Shown: positions 35,527-42,250, counted from the first letter of the stretch. The stretch: 64,000 nt of DNA from an uncultured Alphaproteobacteria bacterium (GCA_951812775.1 OX638326.1:2241391-2305390), one strand, 5' to 3'. Numbers and translations are program-made. Notes: generated by a model from the sequence alone, not told the origin.

Positions 35527-36165
35527 ATGGATCCGGTACAAGAAGCGATCGACTCTGTAGAAGCACTACGGAAACGAATTTCAAGCGTTGATGAAGATGG
35601 TCTAGACCTCATGTTTCGTGAGGCCAGAACGCACAATGGATGGACCGACAAACCTGTGACAGATGAACAGTTACAAAAACTGTTTCAGCTCGTCATCAAC
35701 TGTCCCACCAGTGGTAACTGTCTCCCTTCCCGTTTCGTATTTTGTCGATCCCCCGAAGCGAAGGCACGCCTGATTCCCTGTGTCGCGCCGGGCAATGCAA
35801 CCAAAATTGAAGCCGCCCCCGTATGTGTGATCATCGGATATGATGTTTCCTTTTGGGAACATTTGCCGCGGCTGTTTCCGCACAAAGATATGGCGGCCAA
35901 TTTCAGGGACAACCCCGCCGCTGCGGAAACCGGTAGTTTCAGAAACAGTTCACTCCAGGGTGGCTATCTCATGATAGCGGCACGGGCGATGGGTCTGGAT
36001 ATCGGTGCGATGTCAGGCTTTAACAACCAGGCCGTCGATGAAGAGTTTTTTGCCGGCACAAGTATTAAGTCGAATTTTTTGTGCAATATCGGCTATGGCG
36101 ATACGTCAGCTTTGTTCCAGAAATTGCCGCGTTTCGATTTCGACGATATCTGCGACGTAATCTAA
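35527..36165 (+). CDS. nitroreductase-family protein, RutE-like (putative malonic semialdehyde reductase)
   Basis: Near-colinear with RutE (..RTHNGWTDKPV.., PTSGNC.PSRFVF.RS.E.K.RL.P.., FRNSS.QGGYL..A.RA.GLD.G.MSGF.., SNFLCNIGYGD.S.LF.KLPR..F...C). 212 aa. Confidence 0.6.
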   Translation: MDPVQEAIDSVEALRKRISSVDEDGLDLMFREARTHNGWTDKPVTDEQLQKLFQLVINCPTSGNCLPSRFVFCRSPEAKARLIPCVAPGNATKIEAAPVCVIIGYDVSFWEHLPRLFPHKDMAANFRDNPAAAETGSFRNSSLQGGYLMIAARAMGLDIGAMSGFNNQAVDEEFFAGTSIKSNFLCNIGYGDTSALFQKLPRFDFDDICDVI

Positions 36166-36183
36166 TCAATAGAGGAATTAATT

Positions 36184-36648
36184 ATGGCGGAAGCAAAACC
36201 AAAGACTGTCGTCCAATACACCTTAAACGGTGAATCCATCTCGCACGCCCGCACAGACATCGAAACGCGTGATGTTGACGTGACGATTGATGAACCCACT
36301 CAGCGTAACGGGACCAATATGGGACTCACCCCGACCGAGACACTGGTGGCCGCACTCATCGGCTGCACGAATGTTATCGGCCAGCGGGCCGGAGAACAAC
36401 ACGGAGTCCATTTTGAGGATTTAACCGTCGATGCCCTCGCCGATTTTGATCGCCGCGGTGTCCTTTTCGAAGAAGAAATTGAGGTCCCGTTTCCAAAAAT
36501 TGTTATGACGATTACCGGGAAATCAGACGTTGATGACGCGCCTCTCGAAAAGGTGAAAGCCGATCTCGCCAAATTCTGTCCAATTGCAAAAGTCATTCGC
36601 AATTCGGGTACGGTCATCGAAGAAGTTTGGAATATCTCCAAACCCTAA
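36184..36648 (+). CDS. OsmC/Ohr-family peroxiredoxin-like protein
   Basis: Two conserved Cys contexts (LIGCTN, KFCPIAK). 154 aa. Confidence 0.6.
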   Translation: MAEAKPKTVVQYTLNGESISHARTDIETRDVDVTIDEPTQRNGTNMGLTPTETLVAALIGCTNVIGQRAGEQHGVHFEDLTVDALADFDRRGVLFEEEIEVPFPKIVMTITGKSDVDDAPLEKVKADLAKFCPIAKVIRNSGTVIEEVWNISKP

Positions 36649-36734
36649 GAATCAAATAGCCATTCCTTGGCTTTCAGGCCGCCGCTGTCTTTGACACTGG
36701 CGGTCTTTCTTTTCCTGTCATGAAGTAGAGCAGA

Positions 36735-37457
36735 CTAGCTCGCCGCAAACTCGGAAATTGATTCCCGGATGATGCCTGCTGTGCGTTCATAATGCGCCAT
36801 CAACAACGATACAGCTTCCTCAGCATCACGGCTTGTTGCCGCTTTCATCATTGCCTCATGCTCGTTCAGCTCGTTGCGCCGGGGATAACTGACAACGATG
36901 GCAAGCTGCCGATAACGATCGGCCTGATCATTTAACTGCGCACAATATTGCAATAACCAGCGGGAGCCGCACGCCGACAAAAGTGCTAAATGAAATGCCC
37001 GGTGCAAGCGTTCCCATTCAGGATTAACCGTATAGTGATCCTCGCTGGATGAACGACGAACCCGAGACAGACGATGGAAGGACAGGACCAGCCCCTCTTC
37101 CCATTCATCGTCGCCATTGGCAATCGATTCCCGCAAGGCAATCGCCTCAAGCCAGCAGCGCGTTTTCACGAGTTCCTCAAGATCGGCCCGGCTCGCCGAA
37201 ACGACGCGGAATCCTTTTTGGTCTTCCCGTGTGACAAGACCATCAGCAGATAGCCGGTTGAGGGCTTCTCGAATGGGGCTGTTGCCCACCTCATATCGCG
37301 CCCGCAATGCTTCAGTCCGAAGCTTTTCTCCAGGCGGCAACGAGCCGGAAAGAATATCCCCGCGTAACCGGTCATAAACGGTGGAAGCAAGTGTGCCCGC
37401 AGAACCCTGTCCTGCAAGATCTACTATTGAGGTCACTACTTTATCGTCGGGCGGCAT
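36735..37457 (-). CDS. GntR/FadR-family (FCD) transcriptional regulator
   Basis: N-terminal wHTH (LPPGEKLRTEALRARYEVGNSPIREALNRL), FCD domain, divergent from a TRAP operon. Confidence 0.75.
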   Translation of the reverse strand: MPPDDKVVTSIVDLAGQGSAGTLASTVYDRLRGDILSGSLPPGEKLRTEALRARYEVGNSPIREALNRLSADGLVTREDQKGFRVVSASRADLEELVKTRCWLEAIALRESIANGDDEWEEGLVLSFHRLSRVRRSSSEDHYTVNPEWERLHRAFHLALLSACGSRWLLQYCAQLNDQADRYRQLAIVVSYPRRNELNEHEAMMKAATSRDAEEAVSLLMAHYERTAGIIRESISEFAAS

Positions 37458-40608: not shown

Positions 40609-40616
40609 GAAGGAAT

Positions 40617-41483
40617 ATGCCGATGCGCAATGTCACTGAAGACACACTCACCCAAGCCGTTCTGGAAACAATCTCCAAAGACGCTGATCCCCGATTTCAG
40701 GAAATTATGACCGGGCTCGTCAGCCATCTTCATGCTTTCGCCCTGGAGACAAACCTTTCTAAGGAAGAATGGCTCGACGCTATTGAATTTCTATACCAGA
40801 CGGGCAAGAAAACGACGCGCAATCGCAACGAATTTATTCTGTTGTCGGATACGCTCGGCCTCTCATCGATGGTCGATATGATTTCGAGCCGCGGTAACGA
40901 TGACGCCACGGATGTCAGTGTTCTGGGGCCCTTTTATATCGAAGGAGCACCCTTCATCAAGAATGGCGGCGACTTGATCGCGGACAATACTGGGCAGCAC
41001 ACGCTGGTCAAAGGGCGTATTTCTTCTACAGACGGCTCCCCTGTTCCCAACGCTCTTCTGGATGTCTGGCAAAATGCCGAAAACGGCAAATACTCCAATG
41101 AAGACCCTGAGCAGGACGACAATAATTTGCGGGCCCGGTTAAACGCCGCCGAAGATGGCAGCTATTCCTTTACGACGATCAGGCCAACACCTTACACGGT
41201 GCCCGAAGATGGCCCCGCCGGTGTTATGCTGGAGGCGATGGGACGTCACCCATGGCGACCGGCGCATATCCATTTCAAGATTTCTGCGGATGGTTTTCAG
41301 GATCTCATAACCGAGATTTATCCCGACGACGACGAGTATATCGATGCTGACGCCGTATTCGGTGTCCGAGACTCTTTGGCCGTAAGCTTTAAACCGGTCG
41401 CATCTGAAGAAGATGCCGCTCAATATGGGATTAAATCACCCTTCCTGACTGTGGAATATGATTTCCGCTTACGGCCCGTTTAA
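40617..41483 (+). CDS. intradiol ring-cleavage dioxygenase (hydroxyquinol/catechol 1,2-dioxygenase family)
   Basis: 288 aa. PWRPAHIHF and Tyr ligand regions match the intradiol dioxygenase fold. Confidence 0.65.
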   Translation: MPMRNVTEDTLTQAVLETISKDADPRFQEIMTGLVSHLHAFALETNLSKEEWLDAIEFLYQTGKKTTRNRNEFILLSDTLGLSSMVDMISSRGNDDATDVSVLGPFYIEGAPFIKNGGDLIADNTGQHTLVKGRISSTDGSPVPNALLDVWQNAENGKYSNEDPEQDDNNLRARLNAAEDGSYSFTTIRPTPYTVPEDGPAGVMLEAMGRHPWRPAHIHFKISADGFQDLITEIYPDDDEYIDADAVFGVRDSLAVSFKPVASEEDAAQYGIKSPFLTVEYDFRLRPV

Positions 41484-41506
41484 GACCGTAGAGAAGGAGT
41501 AACAGC

Positions 41507-42250
41507 ATGGGCCGGATATGGATGAGTCAGGTCATCGACGCAATAGCTGACCTTGGCAGACACTATTTAGATCGACCTTCCAGCAAGGCACCGCTTAAAG
41601 CAGCGAAACGCCTGTGTGACGATCTTTTGTCAGATCGTGGCGAGGCCTCGGGCACAGCTTTGGCGCGGGAGCTGGTCGAACGTTATCTCGGCATGGAGGA
41701 ATCAGACCAAGACGGTTTTATAGACCTTCTAGCGTCGGATTACAGCTACGCCGCCGACAAGTTAAAAAATGCGGCAGCTGCCTATGTCCAGAACCCGGAT
41801 GACGACACGTACCGGGTTCTTCGCAATGCCGTGGAGTCTCCGCGTCAGGAACTTCTGCGTCGTATCAACATGGCGCCGGATGGCACATCAACAATCGTCA
41901 AGATGCGCGAGCGCCTGCTCACGCGGCTTTCCGATGCACCTCATTTAAGAACACTCGACTCGGATTTACGCCATTTACTGAGTTCATGGTTTAATCGGGG
42001 TTTCCTCCAATTCGAACGTATCGAATGGCGGACACCTGCCGCTTGACCCTGTTGCTCGTTTTCATCTTGGCAACGGAGCCTCAATCGAACGTATAAATTG
42101 GGACGGCGACATTTCGGAAAAAGGCATCGGCCAGTCCGCCGGACTCATGGTCAATTATCTTTATGCGCCGGATCAAATCGTCGCCAATCACGAAGCATTT
42201 GTAAGTGACGGAAAAATCGTCACATCGTCCAAGGTTCGCGGCCTGCTTTA
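41507..42250 (+). pseudogene. matA: malonyl-CoA decarboxylase (MatA/MCD) remnant: N-terminal domain joined out of frame to the last ~65 codons, with the central ~200 codons deleted
   Basis: N-terminal ORF ends ...LLSSWFNRGFLQFERIEWRTPA*. The +1 frame then reads HLPLDPVARFHLGNGASIERINWDGDISEKGIGQSAGLMVNYLY...VRGLL, which is the canonical MCD C-terminus. Confidence 0.7.

Follow-up and report, generated by a model that had tools for sequence, protein, structure and literature searches.

The stretch of DNA analyzed here, 64,000 nucleotides from the genome of an uncultured Alphaproteobacteria bacterium (GCA_951812775.1, OX638326.1:2241391-2305390) and called the window below, contains an operon in which genes for a tripartite ATP-independent periplasmic (TRAP) transporter and an intradiol dioxygenase are followed by a gene for malonyl-CoA decarboxylase (MCD). 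Gene order across the 64 kb was established from a map of open reading frames (ORFs) together with Pfam and NCBIfam matches, and the window was compared with related loci, which carry L-numbers; L002 was the main intact reference. A regulator gene with GntR and FCD domains (36735-37457, minus strand; Pfam) is intact and diverges from the operon, from which it is separated by a conserved region (37458-37615) containing ...AATAATTTCGATATTTAATTGACAAG..., as seen in the alignment of relatives. On the plus strand, the operon begins with dctP, the gene for the TRAP substrate-binding protein (37616-38708; Pfam DctP and tblastn against L002), which is frameshifted. It continues with intact dctQ (38713-39291; Pfam DctQ, 94% identical to L002) and intact dctM (39304-40608; Pfam DctM, E 1.8e-81, 95% identical to L002). 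All three TRAP components, P, Q, and M, are therefore represented, with NCBIfam matches to TRAP_S1 and dctM in addition to the Pfam matches. An intact gene for a hydroxyquinol-type intradiol dioxygenase follows (40617-41483; Pfam Dioxygenase_N and Dioxygenase_C), and last comes the MCD pseudogene (41507-42250; Pfam MCD_N and MCD, tblastn, and DNA alignment), whose start is preceded by a Shine-Dalgarno-like AAGGAG and lies 23 nt from the dioxygenase stop.

Four further genes on the plus strand stand on the other side of the regulator gene. The first encodes a major facilitator superfamily (MFS) transporter (33285-34529; ORF map and Pfam). The second, intact, encodes a 291-aa protein of the fumarylacetoacetate-hydrolase (FAH) family (34629-35504; Pfam FAA_hydrolase, E 1.4e-67, 95% identical to L002), with NCBIfam matches below threshold to HpaG and to 2,4-didehydro-3-deoxy-L-rhamnonate hydrolase. 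The third encodes an intact 212-aa RutE-like reductase of the nitroreductase family (35527-36165; 91.5% identical to L002), and the fourth an intact 154-aa OsmC-like protein (36184-36648; Pfam OsmC, E 2.5e-13, 90% identical to L002). The reductase passes the NCBIfam model NF003768, 'malonic semialdehyde reductase', with 273.4 bits against a cut-off of 152, so that this activity is predicted for it. Eight genes between 33 and 41.5 kb were intact when compared with L002 by tblastn. A preliminary description of 35527-42250 had listed the RutE-like reductase among its features, and every feature that it listed was found at its coordinates with matches far above chance. Genes for the A and B subunits of a hydantoinase/oxoprolinase (29002-32728), located upstream of the MFS gene, were also intact, and were syntenic in L001.

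The assignment of the dioxygenase was made from its domains and nearest characterized relatives. Its top matches in the PDB were PnpC (3n9t) and hydroxyquinol 1,2-dioxygenase (1tmx), with E values from 8e-76 to 2e-69; it was 47-50% identical to annotated benzenetriol dioxygenases, and it scored under the cut-offs of the NCBIfam equivalogs for catechol and chlorocatechol dioxygenases. On these grounds the enzyme is predicted to be of the hydroxyquinol type.

The MCD gene is divided between two reading frames. The first (41507-42046, with its stop codon at 42044-42046) ends ...NRGFLQFERIEWRTPAA / ...FNRGFLQFERIEWRTPAA and matches positions 5-85 of the 85 in Pfam MCD_N (PF17408; E 3e-27), the N-terminal helical domain. 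The +1 frame reads GGHLPLDPVARFHLGNG...VRGLL to a stop at 42250 and covers only positions 211-252 of the 253 in Pfam MCD (PF05292; E 1.5e-19), leaving the GNAT-like catalytic domain incomplete. A tblastn search with the intact 432-aa homolog of L002 likewise recovered residues 1-178 (89%) and 357-432 (84%) in two frames. In the DNA alignment the gene was shorter by exactly 554 bp than its counterpart in each of L001-L004, and since 554 = 3 x 184 + 2, the deletion is out of frame. Aligning 41507-42250 with full-length MCD mapped the end points: residues 179-363 of 432 (L002 numbering), about 185 codons, are missing, and about 70 C-terminal codons (364-432) are kept. The preliminary description was thus right in recognizing an MCD deletion remnant, and its figures of roughly 200 codons deleted and 65 kept were close. 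The junction lies within a 9-bp direct repeat, ACCTGCCGC (approximately 42034-42042), and in the relatives the stretch that was lost is bordered on either side by ACCTGCCGC or a near-match. A repeat at both ends is the signature of slipped-strand or microhomology-mediated deletion, and the pattern seen here is typical of such an event.

The part that was lost comprises most of the GNAT-like catalytic domain, with the catalytic Ser. The intact L002 homolog aligns end to end with the solved bacterial MCD structures 4ksa and 4ksf (E 1e-118). RpMCD consists of an N-terminal oligomerization domain and a C-terminal GNAT-like catalytic domain with a Ser312/His389 dyad (PMC3701320). Ser312 corresponds to Ser298 of L002 (TLSPIPGF), which is inside the deleted segment, and His389 corresponds to His371 (ARFHLGNGA), which is retained but out of frame. 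Because the serine is deleted and the histidine can no longer be read in frame, the gene is dead, and no MCD enzyme can be made from it. Neither the MCD remnants nor DctP diverge from the relatives more than the intact relatives do among themselves, which indicates that the inactivation is recent.

The lesion in dctP is much smaller. There is one extra base in GCCCAAAAAGGG (38510-38521), a C3-A5-G3 run in which the A5 occupies 38514-38518. A tblastn search with the 363-aa DctP of L002 matched residues 1-302 in one frame and residues 296-363 in the next; the ORF spans 37616-38569 and the frame of the tail 38508-38708. The insertion replaces the last 61 residues, so a full-length binding protein is not encoded. 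The frame is restored equally well by removing one C, one A or one G. The preliminary description had given the change as A4 to A5; a frameshift is present in the sequence as given, and because the relative L005 has A4G3 at this run, A4 to A5 is the most parsimonious reading, although not the sole one. Transcriptional or ribosomal slippage at the A5 was considered as a means of rescuing dctP and was rejected for want of support, the A5 being short and a +1 correction being required. Elsewhere in the window, the loss of one base from a C-run near 8090 splits a second GntR/FCD regulator gene (7640-8328, minus strand) into an ORF with the winged helix-turn-helix domain (8050-8328) and an ORF with the FCD domain (7640-8086). 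This gene adjoins a second TRAP system (8571-11465) and represents a further pseudogene or else an assembly error at the homopolymer.

Related MCD genes were found at 50 loci in a scan of a genome collection. The closest relatives were metagenome-assembled genomes (MAGs) of marine Alphaproteobacteria, L001 (UBA2964), L002, L003, and L005, at 88-89% amino-acid identity and approximately 79% nucleotide identity to the window, and not rhizobia. From 33.0 to 46.5 kb the window and L002 are collinear, and all of the L002 genes there are intact. The dioxygenase gene stands between dctM and the MCD gene in the window, L002, L003, L005-L009, L014, and L057. L001 lacks dctPQM and the dioxygenase gene as a result of a deletion of about 3.9 kb, and its MCD gene is intact; at L001:9900-10000 the promoter region is joined to the last ~60 nt of the dioxygenase gene, followed by the MCD gene. 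This remnant of the dioxygenase 3' end indicates that the adjacency of the GntR and MCD genes in L001 arose by deletion of dctPQM and the dioxygenase gene.

The MCD gene has been broken independently elsewhere. In L005, it ends at codon 124, exactly at a gene for an IS3-family transposase with rve domains (L005:10362-11581), and no equivalent of window positions 41868-51132 (~9.3 kb) is present; L005 also has several frameshifts that resemble long-read errors. In L057, a metagenomic contig that is more distantly related, the genes run dctM, dioxygenase, MCD, OmpA, and the MCD gene is split by a 10-bp frameshifting deletion (L057:2040-2100), independent of that in the window. This deletion takes part of the W-R-T-P-A codons, GGCG[NACNCCNGCS]GCC, which is where the 554-bp deletion in the window starts (42031-42043). 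The GC-rich sequence at this point, where the two MCD domains meet, may be prone to deletion.

Decay also runs into the adjacent type I secretion genes, which the preliminary description had overlooked. The first, a gene for an HlyD-family membrane-fusion protein (42248-43564, minus strand; Pfam HlyD_3 and HlyD_D23), appears intact, with residues 7-441 of its L002 counterpart in one frame. Its stop codon and that of the convergent MCD remnant overlap in the palindrome TTAA (42248-42250), and the corresponding overlap in L002 is 4 nt. The type I secretion ABC transporter gene (43564-45286, minus strand) is a pseudogene of three ORF fragments matched by tblastn in three frames, and gapped DNA alignment with L002 located a 1-bp deletion near 44331 and a 25-bp deletion near 43991. 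The gene for a TolC-like outer-membrane efflux protein (45416-46774, plus strand; Pfam OEP on the L002 ortholog) has two in-frame stops, the first a TAG at 46244-46246 and the second in place of a Trp 27 codons on. A hybrid histidine kinase/response regulator pseudogene (46761-49539, minus strand; Pfam on the 957-aa L002 ortholog, two tblastn frames) has a 4-bp frameshifting indel near 47606 and a 21-bp in-frame deletion near 46833. Beyond it is an open ORF for a protein with RTX calcium-binding repeats (49546-51594, minus strand; Pfam HemolysinCabind, 11 stretches, E 8.8e-56), the likely secretion substrate of this system. In total, this secretion island (42248-51594) carries at least six lesions that inactivate three genes, those for the ABC, TolC-like, and histidine kinase proteins, so that an intact set of ABC, membrane-fusion, and outer-membrane proteins is not encoded and the HlyD-family gene alone of the three is whole. 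Homopolymer errors do not give rise to multi-base deletions or nonsense substitutions, and most of the decay is therefore genuine. The rest of the window is densely filled with long ORFs, and this, together with the eight intact genes, shows that the lesions are concentrated in two modules.

Larger, independent deletions have removed overlapping portions of these two modules from the relatives. L001 retains no more of the HlyD-family gene than its final 54 codons, and L003 has no equivalent of window positions 43290-53039. The secretion island, partly deleted in L001, L003, and L005, is absent from L057, where the OmpA gene comes immediately after the MCD gene; for this reason the island looks like an insertion in an ancestor of the window's clade that is now being shed. 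A separate block at 53990-57245, not found in L005, looks like a mobile insertion and encodes an IS1-like transposase (54019-54903), a HigB-like toxin (55029-55325), and a helix-turn-helix/M78-peptidase antitoxin-like protein (55338-56465).

The region between the regulator gene and dctP (37458-37615) is almost invariant among the window, L002, L003, L005, and L001, and its conservation suggests that it is a promoter/operator region. Within it is an AT-rich element, AATAATTTCGATATTTAATTGAC (37520-37560), and a related element, AATATCGATATTTTGTTGAC, occurs at L063:2990-3040 and L064:5830-5880. The element precedes the first gene of the operon whatever that gene is; in L063 and L064 it is upstream of the MCD gene, which there directly adjoins a gene for an ortholog of the window regulator (68% identity). 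It is a candidate operator for the GntR regulator, overlapping a -35 box. Scans of the whole window with Rfam and for tRNA genes gave no matches, and a scan for promoters and terminators gave nothing above chance level.

These data suggest, with good probability, that an operon conserved in Alphaproteobacteria, made up of GntR, dctPQM, dioxygenase, and MCD genes, is present in the window as a copy that was inactivated recently. The divergent regulator and the conserved promoter region would drive expression of dctPQM and of the dioxygenase and MCD genes, with the FAH-family, RutE-like reductase, and OsmC-like genes close by on the upstream side. The operon and the secretion island would be under relaxed selection across the clade and would be lost piecemeal, with the window representing an early stage. 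The truncated binding protein and the gutted MCD would mean that substrate import and the last step of the pathway had been lost.

Several observations weigh against this explanation. There is a single assembly, and the exact 179-aa ORF was found once, which means that each lesion rests on one observation. In dctP a single base in a homopolymer setting is affected, and this lesion could be an assembly error; the second such frameshift, in the other GntR gene near 8090, means that some 1-base indels in this sequence could be of that kind. A second intact copy of the MCD gene or of the cluster could exist elsewhere in the genome. No CoA ligase or transferase was found in the cluster, a CoA-activating matB being present in Pacificitalea only. 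The functional link of the dioxygenase with MCD is also not universal: L062 has orthologous dctPQM followed directly by an MCD gene with no dioxygenase gene, L063 and L064 have the GntR gene beside the MCD gene alone, and the dioxygenase gene was found in none of the best 80 metagenomic MCD loci. These architectures suggest that the MCD and GntR genes are the constant core, and that the dioxygenase is a frequent but not obligatory partner.

One alternative, which the preliminary description had favored, is that the cluster is a decayed malonate system of the rhizobial type (matR, matPQM, and matA-matB) that has lost matB and has an unrelated dioxygenase in its place. Such systems are documented, both as matR-matABC in Rhizobium leguminosarum and as the TRAP-based gtrA-matPQMAB in Sinorhizobium meliloti (PMC5237526), and the layout of the window is similar, with TRAP transporter and MCD genes that share one direction of transcription and a GntR-family regulator gene that diverges from them. 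When the S. meliloti mat locus (L055) was compared by tblastn at E<=1e-3, the intact MCD was 47% identical to MatA. The regulator agreed in family and divergent orientation but was only 27% identical, compared with 44% identity to the regulator of the Pacificitalea cluster described below. DctM matched at 26-36% over parts of its length, and DctP and DctQ had no match to this locus at that threshold. The TRAP system is therefore not an ortholog of MatPQM.

The absence of matB was correctly noted in the preliminary description and was there attributed to decay, but a tblastn search with MatB found no ortholog near the window MCD gene, nor any within 10 kb of its counterparts in L001-L009 and L014, and the sole AMP-ligase in the window (2904-4544) was 25% identical to MatB. 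Since matB is missing from all of the intact close relatives examined, its absence is ancestral. The dioxygenase does not stand where matB would be expected either. It is upstream of the MCD gene in ten loci, whereas the matB of S. meliloti is downstream, and because its position is conserved across these loci, the dioxygenase gene replaced nothing. The closest genomes are, moreover, from marine organisms. GntR-MCD pairs and dctPQM-MCD without a dioxygenase in L062-L064 do agree with a malonate system, and the TRAP system could carry malonate, given the dioxygenase-free arrangement in L062. The rhizobial reading is nevertheless largely refuted as regards orthology and the loss of matB, and as a whole it is unlikely. 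Thus, the window lineage resembles the rhizobial systems in layout and differs from them in its TRAP subunits, in the low identity (27%) of its regulator, in the lack of matB even in intact relatives, and in the intradiol dioxygenase gene kept between dctM and the MCD gene.

The same lesions could, alternatively, be the product of adaptive loss, if MCD activity became costly by draining malonyl-CoA needed for fatty-acid synthesis once the pathway was unused or deregulated. Three independent MCD lesions, the deletion in the window, the insertion sequence-associated one in L005, and the 10-bp deletion in L057, were encountered in about a dozen loci with this type of operon, the breakpoints of two of the lesions coincide to within ~10 nt, and the genes of the window operon other than dctP and MCD are still intact. 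However, the sample is small and was not gathered for counting pseudogenes, and the metagenome scan returns the best full-length matches, which makes it unusable for such counts; it did bring to light the architectures without a dioxygenase. L001 shows the opposite pattern, with the MCD gene kept and the TRAP and dioxygenase genes lost, and the unrelated secretion genes next door are decaying as well, which fits general relaxed selection. Selection specifically against MCD is therefore an improbable explanation.

It might also be argued that the genes are intact in the organism and that the lesions are long-read assembly errors. The lesions in dctP and in the second GntR gene each affect one base in a homopolymer setting, the origin of the sequence from one 4.15-Mb contig suggests that long reads were assembled, and the related long-read assemblies L005 and L058 are visibly rich in frameshifts. 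This could not account for the 554-bp and 25-bp deletions, the 4-bp indel or the two nonsense substitutions, none of which is a homopolymer error, and a 9-bp repeat is far too short for assembly collapse. In addition, the eight genes at 33-41.5 kb are intact relative to L002, and the lesions cluster in the two modules that relatives have also lost. Artefact is accordingly a very improbable source of the decay as a whole. That the 179-aa N-terminal helical domain is a functional stand-alone protein is scarcely credible, since, although its ORF is uninterrupted, is preceded by a good ribosome-binding site, and is called as a protein in the public record, and although other short MCD_N-only proteins are in the database, this domain serves oligomerization with no catalytic role (PMC3701320), the short entries checked were a split gene (L057) or lay on an error-rich contig (L058), and its conservation is that expected after a recent deletion. 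The MCD_N-only ORF of L058 was discarded as a comparison, as that contig is full of split genes.

A megablast search of 35400-42400 against the PLSDB plasmids gave no matches. The best DctP match among plasmids (43%) was on pDY25-C of Pacificitalea manganoxidans DY25 (NZ_CP021407, ~48.4-57.2 kb), where a single operon encodes FAH-family, malonic semialdehyde reductase, DctPQM, and dioxygenase proteins, with a GntR gene on one side and YciI, MCD, and malonyl-CoA synthase genes on the other. The first gene of that operon is the FAH homolog (45%). Elsewhere, this DctP subfamily adjoins genes for cyclase, FAH, GST, molybdenum hydroxylase, and maleylacetate reductase/dioxygenase, and the MCD gene of L004 (76% identity) sits among genes for aromatic hydroxylase, Rieske, and lactonase proteins. 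These contexts, together with the affinity of the dioxygenase, point to a catabolic cluster for a hydroxylated, probably carboxylated, aromatic compound that is broken down via malonate or malonyl-CoA.

In the intact pathway, the TRAP system would import a carboxylated, probably polyhydroxy-aromatic substrate, the dioxygenase would open the ring, and the FAH-family enzyme would cut the 1,3-dicarbonyl product. The RutE-like reductase could handle an aldehyde or quinone by-product. Carbon that passed via malonate or malonyl-CoA would be turned into acetyl-CoA by MCD. We put forward only tentatively, as a rather doubtful proposal, that this is an undescribed aerobic ring-cleavage route in marine Alphaproteobacteria, with a lower branch via malonate or malonyl-CoA and with an MCD gene that is recurrently inactivated at a deletion-prone site at the domain boundary. 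One possible chemistry is that a polyhydroxylated aromatic acid is cleaved and the product then undergoes an acylpyruvate-type hydrolysis with release of malonate; that the substrates are 1,2,3,5- or 1,2,4,5-tetrahydroxybenzene derivatives, giving malonate together with pyruvate or malonic semialdehyde, is speculation. A malonate-yielding aromatic pathway, if real, would add a route to maps of marine carbon turnover and would provide a role for many stand-alone MCD genes that have no adjacent matB.

The pseudogenes themselves are routine and show a catabolic operon and a secretion island in the course of being lost from a marine alphaproteobacterium of the free-living type. With the sister genomes as later stages of the same loss, they provide an example of stepwise loss by microhomology-mediated deletion. 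The wider value lies in the intact ancestral operon, which links a ring-cleavage dioxygenase and a TRAP importer to MCD. Searches of the accessible literature on MCD, hydroxyquinol or intradiol dioxygenases, malonate semialdehyde, TRAP, and FAH brought up no account of a cluster of this kind, with one fungal route as the sole analog; the gene combination of the intact operon is apparently undescribed, and the pseudogenes are of known families.

When compared with known systems, both MCD remnants of the window strongly match the MCD/MatA family (which also includes 4ks9 and 4f0x), and the intact orthologs are ~47% identical to rhizobial MatA. The window copy, without residues 179-363 and with its C-terminal piece out of frame, is a pseudogene and not a member enzyme. 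The dioxygenase is closest to the enzymes of hydroxyquinol pathways of the PnpC, 1tmx, and TftH type, but the window cluster lacks a maleylacetate reductase; the partners of the dioxygenase here are MCD, the TRAP importer, and the FAH-family and RutE-like enzymes. The fungal route for gallate through 1,2,3,5-tetrahydroxybenzene (PMC10832562) also cleaves the ring of a polyhydroxybenzene and then uses an FAH-like hydrolase. It is an analogy only, because its ring-cleavage enzyme is a DUF3500 protein, its proposed end products are different, and it has no MCD. Another parallel is the Pacificitalea cluster, for which no functional characterization was found; it comprises the same families (FAH, reductase, DctPQM, dioxygenase, GntR, and MCD) at 38-57% identity to the window lineage. 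It differs in gene order and in that MCD is paired with malonyl-CoA synthase and YciI on the opposite strand. Unlike the copy in the window, it has no broken genes and belongs to an organism in culture, and since the operon recurs in several alphaproteobacterial lineages, including the cultured P. manganoxidans DY25, its role is directly testable.

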